Numbered from the stretch's first letter, positions 736-11,113 are shown. The stretch: 13,776 nucleotides of DNA from Candidatus Altiarchaeota archaeon (GCA_026394745.1 JAPKXP010000112.1:1-13776); one strand, 5' to 3'. The notes: generated from the letters alone by a model not told the origin. Numbers and translations: made by a program.

Positions 736-1230
736 TCACACATAGTTCTCGACCATCACACGACAAGTATCATACTGAGTCTTGTTGCTGGAGAACATAC
801 CGCAACCGTCAAGATTCTTCCACAAGCCGAACGCGGACTGATAACAAACGTACCTGCCGCGGTCATTACTCATGCCCTCGCACCTGGACGGCTCGTTCCT
901 CGAAACAGCATTGCATATCACGCGGTCGTCGGCATTCCCGTATTCATTACACAAAGAAGGCTGCTTCAGCAAAGTCGCCCTGCATGCAGCATTAGCGTTG
1001 TCGCTGGTCTTTTCGCAAAGCGAAACATCATCACTCCACAAAGCCTTCTTCCAAAAGCAAACGTCCCTTGAATTAGAATCCAACGCATTACAGTCCCAGA
1101 CTTTCGGCTTCAAAGTGGTCGTAGACGATTTCAGCGTCGATACGGTAGTATCATCGCCATCTGGAGTCCCACAGCAGATGCAACCACCGAAAAAAACAAG
1201 GAGGATGACAAGCACAAAAACCAAACGCAT
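736..1230 (-). CDS. Cys-rich secreted/membrane-anchored protein with five tandem 'C-x11-13-C' repeats and an N-terminal hydrophobic anchor followed by GGCICCG
   Basis: ATG at 1230-1228, TGA at 738-736. The N-terminus MRLVFVLVILLVFFGGCICCG is a signal/anchor. The body has the repeats DCNALDSNSRDVC / LCEKTSDNANAAC / LCNEYGNADDRVIC / RCEGMSNDRGRYVC / GCGMFSSNKTQYDTC. A TATA-like TTTTTATC lies about 23-30 nt upstream. Confidence 0.6.
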   Translation of the reverse strand: MRLVFVLVILLVFFGGCICCGTPDGDDTTVSTLKSSTTTLKPKVWDCNALDSNSRDVCFWKKALWSDDVSLCEKTSDNANAACRATLLKQPSLCNEYGNADDRVICNAVSRNEPSRCEGMSNDRGRYVCYQSAFGLWKNLDGCGMFSSNKTQYDTCRVMVENYV

Positions 1231-1305
1231 AAAGAAGTATTGTAATTGAAGATAAAAACCGATATTTTTAGCCTAGCACAGAGAAATATTTAAGGGTGAA
1301 TCCAA
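1231..1305. promoter_or_regulatory. Divergent A/T-rich promoter region between two Cys-rich protein genes
   Basis: 75-nt AT-rich spacer. On the minus strand TTTTTATC sits about -25 from the ATG at 1230. On the plus strand AAATATTTAA is followed by GGGTGA, an SD-like match to GGAGGTGA, 7 nt before the ATG at 1306. Confidence 0.3.
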
Positions 1306-1641
1306 ATGAAAAATAAAATACTTCCGGCGTTCTTGATACTACTGCTCGCAGGCATCGCGCAGGCAGCAAGCCAGCAATGCGAGACAAACTATGACGAATG
1401 CATAACAACATGCTGCGAAAACTGCGGCTCCCATACGGACTACGACAACAAGGGCGACTTAGTCTGCGACGTAGGCAGCACACAAAACCTAAAGCAGGAA
1501 TGTATTGAAGAATGCCTGCCATGCAGCACGGAATACCAGGACTGCGCAAGCCAGCCAGACAACGAAGGCGCTGGTTGCTGCTGCATCTCCATCGTGGTGC
1601 CATTGGTAACACTACTCACGGCGGCAATCGCAAAAGCGTAG
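1306..1641 (+). CDS. Small Cys-rich secreted protein (13 Cys in 111 aa) with signal peptide and C-terminal 'GCCC-hydrophobic-KA' membrane tail
   Basis: ATG at 1306, TAG at 1639-1641. N-terminus MKNKILPAFLILLLAGIAQA-ASQQ is a signal peptide. The C-terminus is ...GAGCCCISIVVPLVTLLTAAIAKA*. An SD-like GGGTGA lies upstream. Only 27 nt separate it from tspO, so the two are probably co-transcribed. Confidence 0.6.
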   Translation: MKNKILPAFLILLLAGIAQAASQQCETNYDECITTCCENCGSHTDYDNKGDLVCDVGSTQNLKQECIEECLPCSTEYQDCASQPDNEGAGCCCISIVVPLVTLLTAAIAKA

Positions 1642-2468: not shown

Positions 2469-2496
2469 GCTATTACATCAAAACTGTTTGATTACG

Positions 2497-3189
2497 ATGA
2501 AAACCTACCGCATGGCATACTTAACGGTATTGTGTCTGGCTCTCGTGCTGCTGTTGCCCTCATTGTTCGAACACTTCCTGTGGCTTAGCGGGGGTAAGGG
2601 GCTGCGCTATATCTTCAGTGGCAGGTGGGATATCGCAGCCATGAACATAGTCTTCTTCGGCTTGTTTCTAGTCCTAGTCTCTTACAGAAGGCGGGTCGAC
2701 TGGCGTTCGAAGGGAATATACTCCGCGTTCATAATCGCATTGTTCGCCGAGATGTACGGGTTCCCGCTTACGGCATACTTCGTATCCAACTATTTTGGGG
2801 TCGTTGACGTTGACTACAGGCCGTTGTATACCGTCTCGTTCAGCTTTCTTGGGGTTTGGTACAAGCTATCGACAATGATGATGATAGGCGGTATCGTAAC
2901 GGTCATGGGACTTATACTCATAATACTGGGCTGGCGGGAGATATACAAGAACAAGAACGAGCTCACCACGACGGGAATCTACAAGTACTCGCGCCACCCG
3001 CAGTACCTCGGCATCCTGATGGTCGCGTTCGGCTGGCTGATACACTGGCCGACGGTGCTGATAATAGCCATGTTTCCTATTCTAGCCTACTCCTACGTCC
3101 AGCTGGCAAGGAAGGAAGAGGAGGAGGTCGGTAAGAAATTCCCTAAAGAATTCGAGAAATACGAGAAAGAGACTCCGATGATGCTGTAA
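2497..3189 (+). CDS. ICMT/PEMT-family membrane methyltransferase
   Basis: The C-terminal region 'ELTTTGIYKYSRHPQYLGILMVAFGWLIHWPTVLIIAMFPILAYSYVQLARKEEEEVGKKF' matches the ICMT family signature (TxGxYxxxRHPxY...EE). Multiple TM helices. The ORF-track start at 2488 is TTG. The first ATG is at 2497, with an alternative at 2512. Confidence 0.85.
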   Translation: MKTYRMAYLTVLCLALVLLLPSLFEHFLWLSGGKGLRYIFSGRWDIAAMNIVFFGLFLVLVSYRRRVDWRSKGIYSAFIIALFAEMYGFPLTAYFVSNYFGVVDVDYRPLYTVSFSFLGVWYKLSTMMMIGGIVTVMGLILIILGWREIYKNKNELTTTGIYKYSRHPQYLGILMVAFGWLIHWPTVLIIAMFPILAYSYVQLARKEEEEVGKKFPKEFEKYEKETPMML

Positions 3190-3306
3190 GCAAGAGACCA
3201 GACAGCACGATTATTTACTGATTCCTGCGCGGTTTTGATAATACTCTTCTTCACGTACTATATTTCAGTGGCAAAGGGGTGGAATTTCAAGAGGAGGTTT
3301 TTGGAG

Positions 3307-3390
3307 ATGGCGGCGATTAGTCTTGGGTTTTCAGGGTTGACTTTTGTCATAGGGTACGTTGTGAGGATATTTCTGGGTGTGGATGTGTGA
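3307..3390 (+). CDS. Candidate 27-aa single-TM micro-protein MAAISLGFSGLTFVIGYVVRIFLGVDV
   Basis: A strong Shine-Dalgarno GAGGAGG (3291-3297) lies 9 nt before the ATG at 3307. Stop TGA at 3388-3390. A TATA-like TACTATATTT sits at 3255-3264. The peptide is entirely hydrophobic with one internal Arg. It is below the ORF-track length cutoff. Confidence 0.3.
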   Translation: MAAISLGFSGLTFVIGYVVRIFLGVDV

Positions 3391-3414
3391 TTAGATAGTT
3401 CAACGTTAACGCAC

Positions 3415-3468
3415 ATAAAAAAGGGGGGTATATAAAACAATGTGCAATAATAAAACACACTATTGCAC
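3415..3468 (-). terminator. Hairpin GTGCAATA-N11-TATTGCAC overlapping the serpin stop codon, followed on the minus strand by oligo-T tracts (TTGTTTTATATACCCCCCTTTTTT)
   Basis: The perfect 8-bp arms sit at 3443-3450 and 3461-3468, spanning the serpin TAG at 3460-3462. Downstream on the transcript come a T4 and a T6 run plus a C6 homopolymer (G6 on the plus strand at 3423-3428). This is consistent with archaeal oligo-U termination. Confidence 0.4.
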
Positions 3469-4821
3469 TGGATTCTCCAACCTGCCCATGAACAATATGT
3501 TCCCGCTCTTCCTATCTTGTATTACGAACACGAACGGATGGTCTGCATTGAAAACAGTCTGCGGGCGCACTGAAGTGAGGGCGACAATAACCGCAGTAGC
3601 CGCCGCAGCCTCAGTACCCTCCTCGTTCACGTCCACGTAAGCCTTGTGTATCACGTCGCTCACGTAAAGATTCCTCGAGCCGTCCATGCCGGAAAAGTCT
3701 GCGGCGCCCGGGTCAAAGGCAGAGCGCATGCCAAGCGCAGAAAGCTTCTGCGGCAGGGAGTACTGCGTCTCAAGCCTGAACTTAGGGATGTACACGTTAA
3801 CCTGCCCGGAATGTAGCATACTCCTGACAGCCTGAATCTTTTCCAACGTAAGTGCATCCTCCATATCCGATATTGAACCCTTAGGCAGGAGGATAAGCAT
3901 GGAAGTCTCGTTGCCGTCGTACAAAAGCTCCAACGCCTGAAGCTCGTCAGTCTCGGCGTAGTTGAAGACCGCATCCTTCCCAGTACGCCTCATCATCTCG
4001 GCCTTCACGGTCTTTCCGGGGGAGACGGTGAAGTCCTGCACGCTAGTCTCGTCGGCGTTAAACTGCTTAAGCCAAGTGCCCTTAAAGTATATCGCGTTGG
4101 TGAGAACTAGGCGCGTCATCTGATTCAACGCGCCGGCGGGAATCAAGTCCCGAATCTTGTCGTTAGTCTTGTCCTCCACCCACGAGTTAATCGTCTTCCT
4201 CGAACCCTCAGCGTCGCCGACGTAGTCCAAGGCTGACACCTCGCCGCCGTAATATTCCCTGACCACCTGCACGTACTCGCCCCGGAAGAGATAATCCTTC
4301 TGAGGCCACAGCGCGTTCGCGGTGTAAAGCTGGTATCCGGACTTTACGGAATTGATTCCCAAAAAAAGAGACTTAAAGCTTTCCCTACGCGCCGCATCGT
4401 CAGCCGGCAGGTGCAGGACTGCCATCATCTCATCGGCGGTCCCTCCGCGCGCGCCCTCGAAAGTCATCGCCAAAGCCGCGGAAACGCTGAACGGGGAGAA
4501 GAAAACGTTCCCGCCGCCAAGCTTCTTGTACAGTTCGAGCGCGAAACGGTTGTTAGCCTCTACGACGCTCAAGCCCTCGTCGCACCTTGGAGGGCTGGCG
4601 CACCCGCACTCGTCCACGACGCCGGGAATTATGGTGCCGTTAACGCACCAGCCGGGCGCGGGCGATGAGAGCATAGGACACTCGCCGCAGCCGCCTCCCG
4701 GAGGCAGCGTAGGCATGGGTAGAGTAGATGAAACTGGGGGAGATGGACTCCATCCTGAAAAAACAAATCCTAGCACGCACAAACCCAAAACAGCCAACAC
4801 GACGACAAAACGCAAGTCCAT
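3460..4821 (-). CDS. Serpin (inhibitory type) with N-terminal membrane anchor, Pro-rich linker and a 6-Cys module preceding the serpin core
   Basis: The C-terminal 'FNADHPFVFVI' is a perfect fit to the PROSITE serpin signature. The hinge 'EEGTEAAAATA' (P17 E, P15 G, P14 T, P12-P9 AAAA) indicates an inhibitory serpin. Helix-A-like 'EANNRFALELYKKL' is present. The N-terminus is MDLRFVVVLAVLGLCVLGFVF (anchor), then SPSPPVSSTLPMPTLPP, then CGECPMLSSPAPGWCVNGTIIPGVVDECGCASPPRCDE. Confidence 0.9.
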   Translation of the reverse strand: MDLRFVVVLAVLGLCVLGFVFSGWSPSPPVSSTLPMPTLPPGGGCGECPMLSSPAPGWCVNGTIIPGVVDECGCASPPRCDEGLSVVEANNRFALELYKKLGGGNVFFSPFSVSAALAMTFEGARGGTADEMMAVLHLPADDAARRESFKSLFLGINSVKSGYQLYTANALWPQKDYLFRGEYVQVVREYYGGEVSALDYVGDAEGSRKTINSWVEDKTNDKIRDLIPAGALNQMTRLVLTNAIYFKGTWLKQFNADETSVQDFTVSPGKTVKAEMMRRTGKDAVFNYAETDELQALELLYDGNETSMLILLPKGSISDMEDALTLEKIQAVRSMLHSGQVNVYIPKFRLETQYSLPQKLSALGMRSAFDPGAADFSGMDGSRNLYVSDVIHKAYVDVNEEGTEAAAATAVIVALTSVRPQTVFNADHPFVFVIQDRKSGNILFMGRLENPVQ

Positions 4822-4885: not shown

Positions 4886-6985
4886 TTATGATTTGATTAT
4901 TGCGGCGGCTAGTGCCGTTATTAGTATTGATATTGCTGGGAAGCAGCATGTTGTTGGTGTTTGGCCTTGTGTTTTTGTGTCTGGGCCGAGGTCCGTGTTC
5001 CATTGCAATGTTGTGTTTTCTGGCGTGTTGTAGGGTTGGTCTTTGTGCGTTCCAGTGGGTTTTAGGTTGAATGTGTGGGTGTCGAAGTAGTTTTGGTTGT
5101 CTGGCGTGGAGTAGTATTTTTGCCGGTATTCCTTGGTCGTTATTGAATATGTTTGCTGCGCCGTGTAGTCTTGCGAGTCGGGTTTGACTGTTAGGGTTGC
5201 GTCGACGTCGTCTGGAAGGGGCATGAGGTAGAGTAGTCCCTGCCGTACTTCAGTGTCGTACTCGTAGTCTTTGCCGTCCGCAGGGTTGTTGTAGTGTACG
5301 GAGACCTTGTAGTAGTGGACCTCTGTGTCAGGTACTTTTATGAACGCCTTGGGTATGTAGCCTGCGGTCTCCCGGAGGGGTCTTTCGTAGTTGGATGCCT
5401 TGCCGATTTTCTCGCCGGCGTTGTATGCCATTTGAGTGCGGTTGTCCGGAACGCCGTAGTCCACGAAGAATTCTCCGACTTCGTACATGCTGTTGTTTGC
5501 CGGCGGCGGGCTGTCCCTGTAAGGCTCGAATGCGTCGCGAGCGTGATTTCCTTCGCCTGTGTCAGCGAAGAATCCGTGCTCTATGAAGATTTTGTCTATG
5601 GCGTCCGCCTTGCCGGGGAATGCCGTCCTGAATGCGGTGTAGTATTCGTAGAAGTTCTTCCTTTTCACTTTTAGTATCGGCCACATCTGGCTTAGGTTGA
5701 GCGTCACCGTGTCGCCTTGGTCGTTGTTTTTGTCGTAGAGGTCCCATAGGACGCCGCATACGGCAAACTCTTCTGCGGCGCCGGTGCTGTCCCAGCTGCG
5801 GTAGTTGTTTTCCATGCTGCCGAAGCTGGCGTAGTGCTCAGGGTCGCGGTCGCCTCGGTAGTCTGAGATTGCCAGGGTCATGAATTCGGCGAAGCCTTCG
5901 ACGAAGGAGTCGCCGGTAGAAGGGTTGATGTACCCTGCGTGGTTTCGGCTGCCAGCCAGGGTGAATCCGTCAGGCCAGCCGCCGTAGGACGCGTACATGA
6001 GGTGGTGTGCAAACTCGTGGTATTCCCTGTTTTTCGGCTTGTTTGTTGAGCCGTAGGCGCTGTCGGAGAGTCCTATCGCCACCGAGGCGTCATTTGAGCT
6101 GTAGTATGTCTTTTGCCCGCTGGGGTCGATCCTCCTGTCTCCGATGACCGCCTTGACTGGGAGGTTGTAGTCTATGTTAGCCTTGAGATTTTTTATTGAA
6201 AAGTCCACTGCCTCGTGCATGTGGCGGTATATGGCTGCTATGTTCTCCACCTCAGATAGTTTTACGGTGGATTCTATTTTAGTGTCGTTGACTGTCAAGG
6301 TTTTGACTCCTGCGGGAGCATTAATCTTCAGGTCTATGTTTTGCGCAAGGTCCTGCTCCTCCCTGAGCTTGAACTCCTTTTTGAATGACTCGGGAGTCGA
6401 CACCCCCATGAGGCCGCCGCCCAGGGATATTCCGTGATTGACTGTGAAATAGTTTTTTTCGTTCCTGAAGTAGGAGAACTCGGCTGTTAGAGTAATCTTC
6501 ACGGGGTTGGTCTTGTTGTAGTGGAATTTTCCTAGTTGTATGACGTAGCTCCCGTTCTCGTTCGTTTCGTTGTATTGGCTGCTCAACGGCATGTCGGCAG
6601 TGACTGTCATGTATGGCAGGGGATTCCCGTGGCCGTCGGTTATCCTCCCTTTCAGAGCCCACTCTTTAGGTAGTGTCGTTGTGGTTGTAGTCGAGGTTGA
6701 TGTCGTCGAAACTTCGCCTGGGCAGGGTATGTTGGGGCGGACGCAGTAGTGCATGCTCGGGCATAGGGGGTCGTCCGGCGGTTTGACGCATTCCTTAGTC
6801 AGTTCGACGTTCTTTTTACAGTTGACGTTGTCGTACATGCACACGTAATCGACGCACTTGCCTACGCTTTCCTCCCAGCTGCGGCCGGGTGGACACTGCT
6901 GCCATCCGAGGGTTGTGTTTGAAAGAGACGCTATGAGAAGTAGGATAATCGCTATTTTAGTGCCTTGCTTTAGGCGAGCCATCAT
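4886..6985 (-). CDS. Large secreted/surface HExxH protein (putative zinc metalloprotease): signal peptide, Cys-rich module, Thr-rich linker, carboxypeptidase-regulatory-like beta-sandwich, HEFAHH domain, C-terminal 'CC-hydrophobic-KS' anchor
   Basis: N-terminus MMARLKQGTKIAIILLLIASLS. About 9 Cys lie in residues 30-90. The linker is STTSTSTTTTTT. 'GRITDGHGNPLPYMTVTA...NENGSYVIQL' is a CarboxypepD_reg-like motif. 'NREYHEFAHHLMYASYGGWPDGF' contains HExxH. There are many N-x-S/T sequons. The C-terminus is ...TPTTCCFPAISILITALAAAIIKS*. TATA-like AAATATAA lies about 20-28 nt upstream. Confidence 0.8.
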   Translation of the reverse strand: MMARLKQGTKIAIILLLIASLSNTTLGWQQCPPGRSWEESVGKCVDYVCMYDNVNCKKNVELTKECVKPPDDPLCPSMHYCVRPNIPCPGEVSTTSTSTTTTTTLPKEWALKGRITDGHGNPLPYMTVTADMPLSSQYNETNENGSYVIQLGKFHYNKTNPVKITLTAEFSYFRNEKNYFTVNHGISLGGGLMGVSTPESFKKEFKLREEQDLAQNIDLKINAPAGVKTLTVNDTKIESTVKLSEVENIAAIYRHMHEAVDFSIKNLKANIDYNLPVKAVIGDRRIDPSGQKTYYSSNDASVAIGLSDSAYGSTNKPKNREYHEFAHHLMYASYGGWPDGFTLAGSRNHAGYINPSTGDSFVEGFAEFMTLAISDYRGDRDPEHYASFGSMENNYRSWDSTGAAEEFAVCGVLWDLYDKNNDQGDTVTLNLSQMWPILKVKRKNFYEYYTAFRTAFPGKADAIDKIFIEHGFFADTGEGNHARDAFEPYRDSPPPANNSMYEVGEFFVDYGVPDNRTQMAYNAGEKIGKASNYERPLRETAGYIPKAFIKVPDTEVHYYKVSVHYNNPADGKDYEYDTEVRQGLLYLMPLPDDVDATLTVKPDSQDYTAQQTYSITTKEYRQKYYSTPDNQNYFDTHTFNLKPTGTHKDQPYNTPENTTLQWNTDLGPDTKTQGQTPTTCCFPAISILITALAAAIIKS

Positions 6986-7029
6986 TTACTAATCCGTGGT
7001 GTGGCTTATATTTGACTTTATTACGGCAT
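6986..7029 (-). promoter_or_regulatory. Putative leaderless promoter for the HExxH-protein gene
   Basis: Only 44 nt separate the mat stop from the protease ATG. The minus strand reads ...GTCAAATATAAGCCACACCACGGATTAGTAA-ATGATG, with a TATA-like box about -27 and no SD. Confidence 0.3.
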
Positions 7030-8103
7030 TTAGAAGCATTCGGCTTTTCCTGTGAGGCAAAGCTGCGTCATCTTTTGTATGTCGGCGAGCCACTTGTCCG
7101 CTATTTCTTTTGCCTTCTTTTCAATCTTCCTGTCGCCCACTACCTGGATGTCCGCGCAGAGCGGCTGGTCGATGGGCTTCCCGATCTGGCTCATCAGCCG
7201 CACGTACACCTGCTCCGCTCCTTCGTTTGCTATGTCTCGGGCACCGTTCGCGCGGTTTCCTCTGCCTACGCTTCCGTCGTCTCCCATCTCGCCGCTCGTA
7301 CCAGTAACAGTCAGGAATACTGAGCCTGCGCGGTAGTCGTCTGCGGTGTTTATGTCGACGACGACTTTTTCGTCTGTTATGCCTGCGATGCTGTCGAGTA
7401 TAAGCTTCTTTTCCTCTGCCATGACAACCTCGTACTCCTTGATGTTCTTGATGTGGCGTGAAACCATCGCGTTAGCGACAGTTAAAGTAATCTTGTTCTT
7501 ATATCTGACGCCCATCACCTTCACGTCTTCGCCGCTGCCCCGAATCTTCTTCTTCATCACGCCGTTGATGTACTTCTCGGTCTTGTAGACGAGCTCCTCA
7601 GTCAGTGAGAACGGAGCGTAGCTTACGCCGAATGACGTGTCATTGGACTTGGGCATTCCAGTACGACCGAACACATCCCTTAGGTCTGTTGAGCCTAGAC
7701 CAATCTTCTGGTCTACAGTCACGCCTGAAGAAACGTCTATGTGCGGGAAATTCTGTCTTAAGTAATCCCTGGCAGCCTTAATCGCGATGTCGCCGACTGG
7801 AATAAATTCGTCATCGACTTCAGTCGTTGCGCGGCCGCTCAAGAGGATGTAGATTGGCTTGATGACGCTTCCGGAACCGAATAATGGACTGCTCCTGCCG
7901 CCGACGAGCTCCACCTGGTCGGTGTTGTGGTGCATGATGTGGCCGTAGCGCTTCACGTACTCGTTGGAGAGTGCGCGGCTTACTGCTTCAGCCAGGCCGT
8001 CGCAGATGCTGTCTGGGTGTCCGATACCCTTACGTTCCACAAGCTCGACGTCTTGTTTCGCCACGGGAACGGAGTCTACGAATTCGACGGTGATGTTTCT
8101 CAT
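7030..8103 (-). CDS. mat: Archaeal-type S-adenosylmethionine synthetase (methionine adenosyltransferase)
   Basis: N-terminal 'VERKGIGHPDSICDGLAEAVSRAL...HHNTDQVELVGG' and 'LTVTGTSGEMGDDGSVGRGNRANG' are diagnostic of the archaeal MAT family and align by eye with M. jannaschii MAT. ATG at 8103-8101. Confidence 0.9.
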   Translation of the reverse strand: MRNITVEFVDSVPVAKQDVELVERKGIGHPDSICDGLAEAVSRALSNEYVKRYGHIMHHNTDQVELVGGRSSPLFGSGSVIKPIYILLSGRATTEVDDEFIPVGDIAIKAARDYLRQNFPHIDVSSGVTVDQKIGLGSTDLRDVFGRTGMPKSNDTSFGVSYAPFSLTEELVYKTEKYINGVMKKKIRGSGEDVKVMGVRYKNKITLTVANAMVSRHIKNIKEYEVVMAEEKKLILDSIAGITDEKVVVDINTADDYRAGSVFLTVTGTSGEMGDDGSVGRGNRANGARDIANEGAEQVYVRLMSQIGKPIDQPLCADIQVVGDRKIEKKAKEIADKWLADIQKMTQLCLTGKAECF

Positions 8104-8131
8104 GCTATAGATATCGGAATCATCCTTTATA
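8104..8131 (-). promoter_or_regulatory. 28-nt radA-mat spacer carrying TATAAA directly after the radA stop (about -22..-28 from the mat ATG)
   Basis: The minus strand reads TGA-TATAAAGGATGATTCCGATATCTATAGC-ATG. The spacing fits a leaderless promoter; alternatively the two genes are co-transcribed. Confidence 0.3.
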
Positions 8132-9067
8132 TCATTTAGCGTCGCGTATTCCGTCAGTCAAAACCTCGAAAACGCATTCTGCGTCTGGCATGCTGGGGCT
8201 GTCTATCATTTCGGCAATCCTCTTGCTTGCCTTGCCCTTCTTGAGGTAGACTCTGAAGGTGGAGTGGTGGCCTACGATGTGGCCGCCTACGGGGGTTGTG
8301 GGGTCGCCGAACATGATGTCCGGGCGTGCCATGACTTGGTTTGTCACCATGACTGCTGCGTTGTGCAGGTCCGCTATCTTCCGCTGGAGGGTGTGCATGT
8401 GGCGGTTCAGTTTTTGTTGTCTTGAGGCTAGCGTGCCCCTGCCCGTGTATTCGGCACGGAAGTGCGCGATTAGCGAATCTACTATGACTAGTTTTATGTT
8501 CTTCTCCTGCATTAGCTCTGATGCTTTTTCTGCGAGGAGCATCTGGTGGTCGCTGTTGTATGCCCTTGCGACTTGGATGTTTCCTAGAACCTCTTTAGGG
8601 TCGAGTTTCAGGGCTTTTGACATCTGTTGGATTCTTTCGGGGCGGAACGTGTTTTCGGTGTCGATGTATATTGCGCCGGCTTCCAGGCCGCCTTTATCCT
8701 TGGGTAGTTGAACGTTGACTGCGAGTTGGTGTGCGACTTGGGTTTTTCCTGAGCCGAATTTACCGAACATCTCGGTTATGGCTTGGGTTTCTATGCCGCC
8801 GCCGAATAGTTTGTCGAACTCCTTGCTGCCGGTGGAGAGTTTTCCTATTTGCTCTCTTTTTGCTAGTACTTCCAGGCCGGATTCGAAGCCCATTTGTAGT
8901 GAGTCTCTTGCTGCGTTGATTATTTTTTTGGCGCTGGCTTCGCCGAGGCCGACGTCAACGAGCTCGCCGACTGCGGCTGCGGCTATCGCCTCGATGCTTA
9001 CGTATCCTGCTTCCCTGAGTTTTTCGGCGATGGTTTCGCCTACTCCAGGTAGTTCTTCTAGGTCCAT
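8132..9067 (-). CDS. radA: DNA repair and recombination protein RadA
   Basis: The N-terminal helix-hairpin-helix '[20 protein letters not shown]' is followed by a RecA fold with Walker A 'GKFGSGKTQ' and '[15 protein letters not shown]'. 311 aa, no intein. A TTTTTAAC box lies about -30 upstream. Confidence 0.95.
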
Positions 9068-9160: not shown

Positions 9161-11113
9161 TCAGTCGACTATCTTCTCCATCTTTTTTATTATTTCGGAG
9201 CCGTCGACTAGGGAGTATTTGAGGACGTCGATTAGGGTTTTCGCAGTCCTTATTATTATTTTGCCTTCGTATTTTTTCTCTAGGAGGACGTCCTTCATGT
9301 TGCTTTCCGGGATTATGACTTCTTTCATGCCTGCTTCGGCTGCGGCTTCTATTTTCTGGGTTACGCCGCCGACCGGCAGGACTTCGCCTCTGACTGTGAG
9401 CGAGCCGGTCATTGCTACTTCCTGTTTTACGCCCACGCCTTCGATGGCGGATATGACTGCGACTGCGACGCTCACTGATGCGGAGTCACCTTCCACTCCC
9501 TCGTAGGTCTGGAGGAATTGTATGTGTATGTCGTGCTTGTAGATGTCTTTCCCGCTTACGTTCTTGAACAACGCGGAGACGTTGGTGACCGCCTCTTTGG
9601 CAATCTCCCCGAGTTTTCCTGTCGCGTAGATTCTAGCGCTCTCCTTGCTTTGGGCTGGAGCGACTTCGGCGACGATTGGTAGGACCGTTCCGCCTTCGCC
9701 GAATACTGCAAGGCCGTTGACGCGCCCCACCTTCTCTCCGCTCGTTATGAGTATGTTGTATTCCTTCTTGCGTTCTAGTATTACGTCGCCGACCTGCTGC
9801 TCCATTGTCCTTGCTGACTTCTTGCCTTCGAGAACATCCTCGGTCGTCACGTACTTGTGCTTCTTTTCGCTGGCTATGTCGCCTGAAGCGCGGATGAGCC
9901 CTCCAATCTCCCTGAACCGGAGGGTGATTTTGTCGCGCATGCCAGCCTTCCTTTTAGCTTCCTTGATTATCTCTTCCACTGCCGTTTTTGTGAAGTGCGG
10001 GATTTTACCGTCCTTCCTGACTTCCTGAGCGACGAACTGCACGAACTTCTTCCGGTTTTCGTCTGTGTCGTCTATGTTCTCTTTCATGAACACCTCGTAG
10101 CCGTAGCCCCTGATTCTGGAGCGTAGTGCGGGGTGCATGTTCTCTACGACGTGCACGTTGCCTGCCGCCACGAGGATGAAGTCGCATGGAACCGGGTCTG
10201 TTATGACCATCGCGCCTGAGCTCATCTCGCTCCTTCCGGTTATTGAAAGCTGCTTCTCCTGCATCGCAGTCAAAAGGTCGATTTGCGAGTTCCCGAGCGC
10301 CCCGACCTCGTCGATGAACAAGACGCCCTTGTTGGCCTTGTTGATTAGCCCGGCGACGACGCGAAGGTGCGCTGGGGTTCCGAGTCCGCCGGTCTGAAGC
10401 GGGTCGTGCTTTACGTCGCCGAGGAGCGCGCCTGCGTGGGCGCCTGTGCCGTCGTAGAACGGAGCCATCTTTTTCCTCTCGGCGTTGTCGACTATGACCC
10501 TGGGAATCAACGTCTTTGTTGAGCCCATCATGCCGCGGATGTTGACTCCGAACAGCAGGAAGAATATTATGCCGAATCCCATCCAAGCCGCTATGACTAT
10601 GCCATCTTTTATCAGCCCGAACATGTAGGCCGTAAGCGGGAGAACGAAGAACAGTAGCAGCATCGTCAGGACTCTGCCTCCGCCGTCTCTCCCGCCGTCC
10701 ACATCCTTCTCGCGCTCTGCCTTGATTATCTTCCTGCCTTCGCCTGCTGGGAAGACTTTTATCTTCGGGTTGTTCTCGTCCTCGAGGTTTGGTATGGACA
10801 GGATGTCGACGAGCGCCTCGCAGGGCAGTAGTTCGGCCATGGCGTTCGCGAGCATGCTCTTCCCGGTTCCGGGGTCGCCGATGAGGAGTATGTGCCTCCT
10901 CTGTTTGGCGGCCTTGCGTATGGTGTCGACCGCCTTCTCCTGGCCGATGACCTGGTCGATCAGCTTTTCAGGGACTTTGATGTTCTCAGTAGTCTCGAAG
11001 TCACTCCATTTGCTCATGGAGACTGCATCGATAAGCTTTTCAGCGCTTGATGCTGCCTTGACGGGCTCTACCCTGGCGTCCTGCTTGGACTGTCTTCCCT
11101 TTTTCTCCTGCAT
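9161..11113 (-). CDS. lonB: Archaeal membrane-anchored Lon protease (LonB): AAA+ module with inserted TM hairpin and a Ser-Lys protease domain
   Basis: Walker A '[10 protein letters not shown]'. The TM insertion is '[43 protein letters not shown]'. Catalytic 'GDSASVSVA' and '[11 protein letters not shown]' are present. The ORF-track start at 11119 is GTG; the first ATG is at 11113-11111 (MQEKKGRQ...). Confidence 0.95.

Follow-up and report, generated by a model that had tools for sequence, protein, structure and literature searches.

Introduction

Exported or extracytoplasmic alpha/alpha solenoids with a pair of cysteines in each hairpin are represented by HcpB and HcpC of Helicobacter and by mitochondrial COA7. 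The latter is a Sel1-like protein with five repeats and 13 cysteines, and intra-repeat disulfides are found in COA7 as well as in the Hcp proteins (PMC8892353). TPR/PPR-type helical repeat proteins and the bacterial TPR lipoproteins NlpI, LpoA and YbgF/CpoB are also among the systems closest to the protein described here. Short tandem cysteine units in secreted proteins are further known from, e.g., TIGR04201 (Myxo_Cys_RPT), the Pfam Dumpy DPY module, EGF-like modules and Galaxin-like repeats.

Lipobox proteins are, by prediction, widespread in Euryarchaeota and DPANN and, outside the haloarchaea, mostly Sec-dependent (PMC12462473). The strict form of the motif has [L/V/I] at position -3, [A/S/T/V/I] at -2 and [G/A/S] at -1, followed by C at +1, and in Haloferax volcanii lipobox proteins carry thioether-linked archaeol in a manner that depends on AliA/AliB (PMC12462473). 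We found no study of lipoprotein processing in Altiarchaeota.

Here we analyse a small protein encoded in a stretch of 13,776 nucleotides (the window) from a Candidatus Altiarchaeota archaeon (GCA_026394745.1 JAPKXP010000112.1:1-13776), following up an earlier note on the same DNA. The protein consists of a hydrophobic N-terminus that runs into FFGG-C17-I-C-C-G, a Thr/Ser-rich linker, and ten cysteines arranged as five pairs. In principle it is similar to surface scaffolds of the TPR/Sel1 type, without belonging to either family. With HcpB, HcpC and COA7 it shares a predicted exported alpha/alpha solenoid with one cysteine pair per hairpin, the likely common logic being disulfide-stapled hairpins that form a binding surface. 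Membership of the Sel1 family was rejected in the absence of a match to Sel1 (PF08238) and with units of 22-26 residues as against the Sel1 repeat of ~36 residues; the TPR family, defined by a profile match, a 34-residue repeat and small residues at positions 8, 20 and 27, was likewise rejected. The TIGR04201, DPY, EGF-like and Galaxin-like modules are unrelated in sequence to the units described here, and none of them matches the helical unit. The anchor resembles that of the Haloferax volcanii lipoproteins in that the signal peptide ends in a small residue followed by cysteine; the canonical archaeal lipobox has a single cysteine, whereas [LIV]-C-C comes next in the subfamily of the target. 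We consider it probable that the protein is a small Sec-exported, lipobox-anchored, disulfide-stapled helical scaffold or binding module.

The gene and its start

The translation of the open reading frame, of 164 aa from an ATG start, is identical to that of the earlier note. The sole exact database entry is the NCBI protein 'MAG: hypothetical protein NTU61_03235', annotated with a GTG start at 1213-1215 and 159 aa. The ATG (Table 1) is the preferred start over this GTG, five codons downstream, because homologues begin with M-[RK]. In an alignment of the target with 11 orthologue-like proteins (A1; MAFFT, 12 sequences, 23-31% identity), 9 of the 11 others share the MR n-region. Moreover, the N-terminus conforms to a PS00013-type lipoprotein rule (see below) from the ATG, not from the annotated GTG.

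The minus strand of the spacer upstream of the gene has A/T-rich, TATA-like boxes (ctaaaaatatc and ggtttttatc) 20-40 nt before the ATG and no Shine-Dalgarno sequence, so that a leaderless mRNA is possible. On the plus strand, GGGTGA is found 5 nt before the ATG at 1306. No sigma-70-type sites were found in the spacer, as expected for an archaeon.

Table 1. Features of the target gene and its surroundings in the window (residue numbers refer to the 164-aa protein)
Feature	Coordinates	Strand	Residues and remarks
Whole gene	736..1230	-	164 codons; stop at 736-738, ATG at 1228-1230
Signal peptide	1183..1230	-	residues 1-16, MR + hydrophobic core LVFVLVILLVFFGG; read from sequence
Lipobox-like F14-G15-G16-C17	1180..1191	-	conforms to PS00013-type rule; G16 and C17 invariant in A1
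C17-I-C19-C20, motif G-C-[LIV]-C-C-[GSA]	1171..1182	-	extra cysteines directly after the lipobox cysteine
Thr/Ser-rich disordered linker	1099..1170	-	residues 21-44, GTPDGDDTTVSTLKSSTTTLKPKV
Repeat unit 1, long type	1027..1098	-	residues 45-68, C47/C58; predicted helix 52-66
Repeat unit 2, short type	961..1026	-	residues 69-90, C72/C83; predicted helices 69-74, 77-88
Repeat unit 3, short type	892..960	-	residues 91-113, C94/C106; predicted helices 91-96, 100-110
Repeat unit 4, long type	814..891	-	residues 114-139, C117/C129; predicted helices 114-119, 123-136
Repeat unit 5, terminal capping unit	739..813	-	residues 140-164, C143/C156; predicted helices 140-146, 150-162
Divergent intergenic spacer	1231..1305		75 bp; sequence reading
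Antisense ORF	872..1249	+	
111-aa Cys-rich protein	1306..1641	+	divergent neighbour
PEMT/ICMT-family membrane protein	2488..3189	+	1.3 kb from target
Serpin	3460..4821	-	
699-aa secreted protein	4886..6985	-	HEFAH metalloprotease-type motif, read from translation
Left-end gene	1..~600	-	runs off left end of window; downstream of target, same strand

A family of variable repeat number

An exhaustive phmmer search of 1.84 billion cluster representatives retrieved 59 proteins at E<=1e-3, the target's own entry included. Five were at or below 1e-10, namely this entry and four relatives, and the best non-self matches range from 3e-13 to 1e-10. Identity to the nearest relative (P0008) is 38% across part of the sequence, and it is 26-34% for the best matches over the full length. 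A word-indexed homologue search recovered only the target itself from the single sequence, and 7 and 5 proteins from alignments A1 and A2, respectively; a single-protein search of GTDB species representatives found no relative, and a search for contigs encoding the annotated 159-aa form gave no match. In A1, M1, G16, C17, A108 and eight of the ten domain cysteines are invariant, and the remaining two cysteines are nearly so.

Every name given to the relatives in the sources is 'hypothetical protein'. Neither Pfam (E<=1) nor NCBIfam has a model that matches the target, Pfam at E<=0.01 matched none of 47 relatives scanned, and no family was matched by more than one member. This is in keeping with the earlier note, to which the protein was not obviously part of a common domain family. 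Curated Cys-rich repeat models match, below thresholds, only unrelated N-terminal parts of single family members.

The unit consensus is D-P-S-L-C-E-K-I-x-D-x-x-x-R-D-x-C-Y-x-x-V-A. Family-wide, the distances between neighbouring cysteines have sharp peaks at 12, which separates Cys1 from Cys2, and at 14 and 11, which separate Cys2 from the Cys1 that comes next and define the unit as long (14) or short (11). The number of units, counted as chains of regularly spaced cysteines, runs from ~2 to 15.5 with a median of 7, and within the close group alone from ~4 (P0028) to ~8 (P0023). A comparison of repeat number among orthologues had been proposed at the outset, and the count does vary. The target carries the family pattern D-x-S-x-C-[EDN]-k-I-x-D-x3-R-D-x-C-[YF]-x2-v-A with Cys1-Cys2 distances of ~11-13, and has significant sequence similarity to other members in the phmmer search. 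The target is a five-unit member of a large family in which the number of repeats varies and for which there is neither a curated model nor a name.

The distribution of the family was sampled in species-representative genomes by scanning the DNA for a pattern that stands for two 'C-E-K-I' unit starts in succession. The pattern yielded at least 120 loci and favours AT-rich genomes, such that the counts that follow describe a biased sample and no census. At least 32 loci among 120 listed encode proteins with three or more unit matches. Archaea account for 21 of these 32 confirmed loci, with 15 from DPANN (Woese-, Pace-, Micr-, Iain-, Aenigm-, Nano- and Nanohalo-archaeota), one each from Altiarchaeota, Hydrothermarchaeales and Methanosarcinales, and three unclassified. 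The other 11 among the loci listed are bacterial: eight from CPR/Patescibacteria, two unclassified and one from a Bdellovibrionales bin. Among the loci listed, which are a biased sample, the repeat family is found mostly in ultra-small archaea and bacteria. The Bdellovibrionales MAG (L059) and a Candidatus Pacearchaeota MAG (L110) carry near-identical family proteins, with 4 differences in the first 70 residues printed, which probably reflects a binning error in one of the two.

Five repeats in the target

The target has its units in the order long-short-short-long-terminal. Expressed as position differences within a pair and to the next pair, the cysteines are spaced 11/14, 11/11, 12/11, 12/14 and 13. 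The spacing C-x11-13-C proposed in the earlier note is one residue too many, as it gives the position difference; the actual intervals are x10, x10, x11, x11 and x12. The accompanying motif, C[NE]x4-6[ND]x2-4C, describes units 1-3 and does not, as written, describe units 4 and 5.

The placement of the ten domain cysteines at 11-14 residues from each other is far from random (p ~5e-6). Likeness between the units of the target outside the cysteines is not significant in a BLOSUM self-alignment with the cysteines held fixed (z 0.9), and the target sequence taken alone therefore displays only a periodicity of cysteines. A unit model built only from distant relatives matches the target four times. 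When the five unit sub-alignments of A1 were compared with hhalign, the mean score was 13.6; column shuffles that left the Cys columns in place gave 5.0 +/- 0.9 (z ~9.8), and full shuffles 3.6 +/- 0.8. Because the scores exceed those of the Cys-fixed shuffles, the internal periodicity of the target is significant beyond the cysteines. The five tandem cysteine-pair repeats claimed from the sequence are thereby borne out by the regularity of the cysteines, the four matches of the unit model and the profile-profile comparison.

A predicted helical solenoid and the pairing of its cysteines

AlphaFold2 gave a poor model from the single sequence (pLDDT 55). With A1 as input, pLDDT exceeds 90 from approximately residue 45 to 160, and all five models agree. 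In this model, short and long helices alternate with one cysteine per helix (Table 1), and the predicted helix-turn-helix units stack into a solenoid. A Foldseek search with the predicted structure against PDB and BFVD returned nothing at E<=0.001, and a sequence search of the PDB with the target protein gave no match. A Csp-type bundle was rejected as a description of the fold, the Foldseek matches to this copper storage protein having E 4.1-5.3 and TM ~0.18 and the predicted structure being an open solenoid, not a four-helix bundle.

The consensus places both cysteines of a unit on the hydrophobic face of the helices (L-C-x-x-I and C-Y-x-x-V-A). Helix-register arithmetic on the predicted helices points to no clear preference between pairing of Cys1 with Cys2 and of Cys2 with Cys1 of the next unit. 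In relatives, degenerate units from which both cysteines are missing together were recognized by eye from long Cys-Cys gaps in P0005 (residues 82-119), P0054 and P0058, and insertions of up to ~20 residues between Cys1 and Cys2, with both cysteines kept, are seen in P0056, P0042 and P0057. Because of this paired loss and the insertions tolerated between the two cysteines, the most likely arrangement is one disulfide per unit, closing each hairpin.

Altiarchaeota are described from anoxic subsurface habitats (PMC4975002), and such a habitat makes extracellular disulfides in the target less self-evident. The cysteines could instead be a ladder of functional thiols, with one core-facing cysteine per helix lining the solenoid at the surface of an anaerobe in sulfidic water, and serve in the binding of metals (Cu(I), Fe, Zn, thiophilic metals) or in thiol/polysulfide redox reactions. 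The position of the cysteines on the hydrophobic face would suit such a role, as would the anoxic setting, the presence of both cysteines in 328 of 328 scored units, though scoring favours Cys and the unit HMM recovers only two-Cys units, and the appearance of the Cys-lined Csp among the Foldseek matches. We nevertheless consider it unlikely: the Csp match is not significant, metal motifs of the CxxC or CxC type are missing from the domain, no His, Met or Asp is conserved along with the cysteines in A1, and many members of the family live in oxic or varied habitats and belong to varied taxa. In relatives, the cysteines vanish as intra-unit pairs, as expected for disulfides.

The predicted N-terminal anchor

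A PROSITE PS00013-type rule for lipoproteins combines a positive n-region, an uncharged h-region and the motif [LIVMFWSTAG](2)-[LIVMFYSTAGCQ]-[AGS]-C with the cysteine at position 15-35. The target conforms to this rule as coded here, with R2, uncharged residues 3-16 and F-F-G-G-C17, and Cys17 is predicted to carry the lipid and to begin the mature protein. The signal peptide has a predicted helix at residues 3-14, and its architecture is conserved in A1. A class III (pilin-type) signal peptide was rejected, as the hydrophobic stretch is not preceded by a charged-Gly cleavage motif. The linker is predicted to be disordered, with pLDDT below 50 at residues 25-27 and 29-36 and a mean of ~50 over 21-40, and the homologues in A1 have Thr-rich linkers of variable length.

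Family-wide, 28 of 65 members conform to the PS00013-type rule, and many others in the GTDB sample, bacterial for the most part, have a hydrophobic segment but no lipobox at the N-terminus; for these two reasons, the repeat module looks like a tethered surface domain. The A1 profile has only weak matches among PDB sequences, to lipoprotein N-termini of pullulanases, and a search of NCBIfam with the N-terminal 44 residues of the target gave nothing at E<=10.

The members without a lipobox also bring up the alternative that the N-terminus of the target is an uncleaved signal anchor, which would make it a type II membrane protein and no processed lipoprotein. G-C-I-C-C-G would then lie at the membrane interface, and the cysteines there could be acylation sites, link molecules by disulfides or be without a role. 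In line with this, the target departs from the strict lipobox with F at -3 and G at -2; the strict form was matched by 5 of 12 close homologues tested, all with L-S-G-C or V-S-G-C. On the other hand, the hydrophobic segment ends in an invariant G-C in 12 of 12 orthologue-like proteins, canonical L-S-G-C among them, the hydrophobic stretch before Cys17 is only ~14 residues and short for a stable transmembrane helix, and a polar Gly- or Thr-rich linker comes next, as is usual for lipoproteins. An uncleaved anchor is for these reasons improbable, and we favour a lipoprotein signal peptide.

Extra cysteines after the lipobox

The lipobox-type junction followed by extra cysteines had been noticed from the sequence, and the comparison agrees with it: the PS00013-type rule places the junction at Cys17, G16-C17 is invariant, and C-[LIV]-C-C recurs in at least eight separate 90%-identity clusters. 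It is carried by the target, P0003, P0010 (Candidatus Altiarchaeales), P0018, P0023, P0028, P0047 and P0060; a C-x-C form is present in P0007, P0008 and an extended P0024 (Altiarchaeota). The annotated start of P0024 (L011 ~9866..10672 (+)) seems too far downstream; the in-frame codons upstream encode VKHSPTVCYFVLIPVLLCGCICID, a signal peptide whose lipobox reads G-C-I-C. Members from other phyla, as found here, lack the C-x-C-C extension. Among the loci and members compared, the Cys-x-Cys-Cys after the lipobox is confined to the target's own subfamily, and it is the most unusual detail of the protein. Across all fetched loci there are 65 lipobox-like ORFs; eight have C-[LIVMF]-C, all in loci of the target subfamily, and two of the eight are not obvious family members. 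The first of these two, at L010 5735..5971 (+), has 78 aa (SGCLCCTPP...) and a single C-x10-C unit; the second, of 239 aa at L002 3567..4286 (+) (LGCVCMPGGGG...), is encoded immediately upstream of P0060.

Other cysteine clusters abut membrane segments in the same region. The 111-aa protein has 13 cysteines and the C-terminus GAGCCC-ISIVVPLVTLLTAAIAKA, and the 699-aa protein ends in TTCC-FPAISILITALAAAIIKS; in both, Cys-Cys(-Cys) is followed by a hydrophobic tail that runs into a short basic end. These tails have the look of an exosortase/archaeosortase-type signal for sorting or anchoring at the C-terminus; they gave no NCBIfam match at E<=10, and the tail was seen in no other fetched locus. 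The PEMT/ICMT-family protein of the window is isoprenylcysteine carboxyl methyltransferase-like, and a second ICMT-family protein is encoded at L011 14842..15534 (-), ~4 kb from P0024 on an Altiarchaeota contig. The two have no tblastn similarity to each other. The nearness of ICMT-family genes to the target and to P0024 may be coincidence, yet it is notable beside cysteine clusters that abut membrane segments.

A speculative and quite unlikely possibility is that G-C-[LIV]-C-C-[GSA] is an extended lipobox specific to Altiarchaeota-like archaea, in which two or three cysteines would be lipidated or the extra cysteines would be a sorting signal and which, together with the Cys-Cys tails and an ICMT-family enzyme, would belong to an undescribed cysteine-based membrane-anchoring system. 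The Altiarchaeota cell is described as having two membranes, and an extended lipobox, if real, could tether or route surface proteins in such a cell.

Genomic context

The window is typically archaeal, with genes for an archaeal-type AdoMet synthetase, RadA, LonB, a Band 7 protein, Kae1 and a tRNA-splicing endonuclease, and also encodes TspO, the PEMT/ICMT-family methyltransferase and a serpin. The serpin has an N-terminal membrane anchor and a small Cys-rich insert and lies directly downstream of the HEFAH-motif protein; the two may be a surface protease/inhibitor pair. The product of the left-end gene has a degenerate Walker-A-like GPPASKKST and no Pfam match. A 'TTTL[KP]'-like motif recurs in Thr-rich linkers of unrelated secreted proteins on Altiarchaeota-like contigs, i.e. 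in the linker of the target, the 699-aa protein and the L001 proteins at 2569..3603 and 6601..8709, and these linkers may be O-glycosylated stalks.

The divergent arrangement of the target with the gene for the 111-aa Cys-rich protein is real, as first observed, and gave rise to the idea that the two are co-regulated. They could be working partners, e.g. as co-regulated surface proteins, given their head-to-head genes and the short spacer, and both are secreted, Cys-rich and membrane-tethered, one by an N-terminal cysteine cluster and the other by C-terminal CCC and a hydrophobic tail. However, no relative of the 111-aa protein was found in the seven distinct loci with close relatives of the target (L001-L004, L008, L010 and L011) or in the other fetched loci, and a tblastn search of all fetched loci with the neighbours of the target (the genes for the 111-aa, 699-aa and ICMT-like proteins and the left-flank genes) was without a match. 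The neighbourhoods of the homologues are heterogeneous and resemble neither the window nor one another, except that P0007 and P0008 are syntenic (SpoU methylase, gene, DUF87); no conserved gene neighbourhood was found among the fetched loci. As a consequence of the missing 111-aa relatives and the differing neighbourhoods, the idea of co-regulation is without comparative support. Codon usage is also unlike between the two genes (+0.28 for the 111-aa gene, -0.33 for the target), and we regard a functional pair as very unlikely.

The synonymous-codon score of the target equals background expectation (z 0.2), compared with +0.03 to +0.35 for ten reference genes of the window, and its GC of ~0.49 is below their ~0.51-0.56. 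Based on these two properties, the gene is compositionally atypical for its contig. The odd codon usage and GC suggest recent acquisition or fast evolution; the adjacent 111-aa gene has normal codon usage. The earlier note had named lack of orthologues together with lack of a coding signature as grounds for giving up the protein. The codon-usage part of that concern has materialized, and the ORF stands despite it because homologues exist, 59 of them in the phmmer search. That the ORF is a shadow of the antisense frame, which scores +0.10 and shares third codon positions with the target frame, or a chance frame in a low-GC spacer without a close orthologue, is hardly credible and was rejected in view of protein-level relatives with invariant cysteines, a conserved signal peptide and lipobox and a confident predicted fold, the more so as the antisense product has no recognizable feature and would extend into the divergent promoter region, and NCBI annotation also places the gene on the minus strand. 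By its conservation, the ORF is a real gene under protein-level constraint.

Conclusion

The proposed course of events for the target is as follows. The MR and hydrophobic N-terminus would direct the protein to the Sec translocon. By analogy with the AliA/AliB pathway of Haloferax, the cysteine of FGG-C17 would become thioether-lipidated and the signal peptide removed, leaving Cys17 as the lipid-bearing N-terminus; the lipid is archaeol in the one archaeon studied. A stalk of ~24 Thr/Ser-rich residues, predicted to be disordered and probably glycosylated, would hold the domain off the membrane. Residues 45-164 are predicted with high confidence to form a right-handed-type alpha-solenoid of five units of 22-26 residues, each with a short helix carrying Cys-1 and a longer helix carrying Cys-2, and the two cysteines would most likely staple the hairpin by a disulfide. 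Like other surface proteins with helical repeats, the solenoid would then offer its elongated surface as a scaffold or for the binding of a ligand.

Surface proteins with helical repeats are already known, as is anchoring by a lipobox, and in kind the protein is not new. The particular unit of 22-26 residues, a short helix and a long helix with an essentially invariant cysteine pair, is not in Pfam or NCBIfam and has no relative among solved structures. Contact with other cells is generally regarded as essential to DPANN and CPR organisms, most of whose surface proteins are uncharacterized. With a defined model of the family, many such proteins could be annotated, and studies of structure and binding would have a manageable target. 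For archaeal lipoprotein biogenesis, where the first enzymes were not identified until 2024-2025, the subfamily-specific Cys-x-Cys-Cys is a concrete peculiarity that can be tested.
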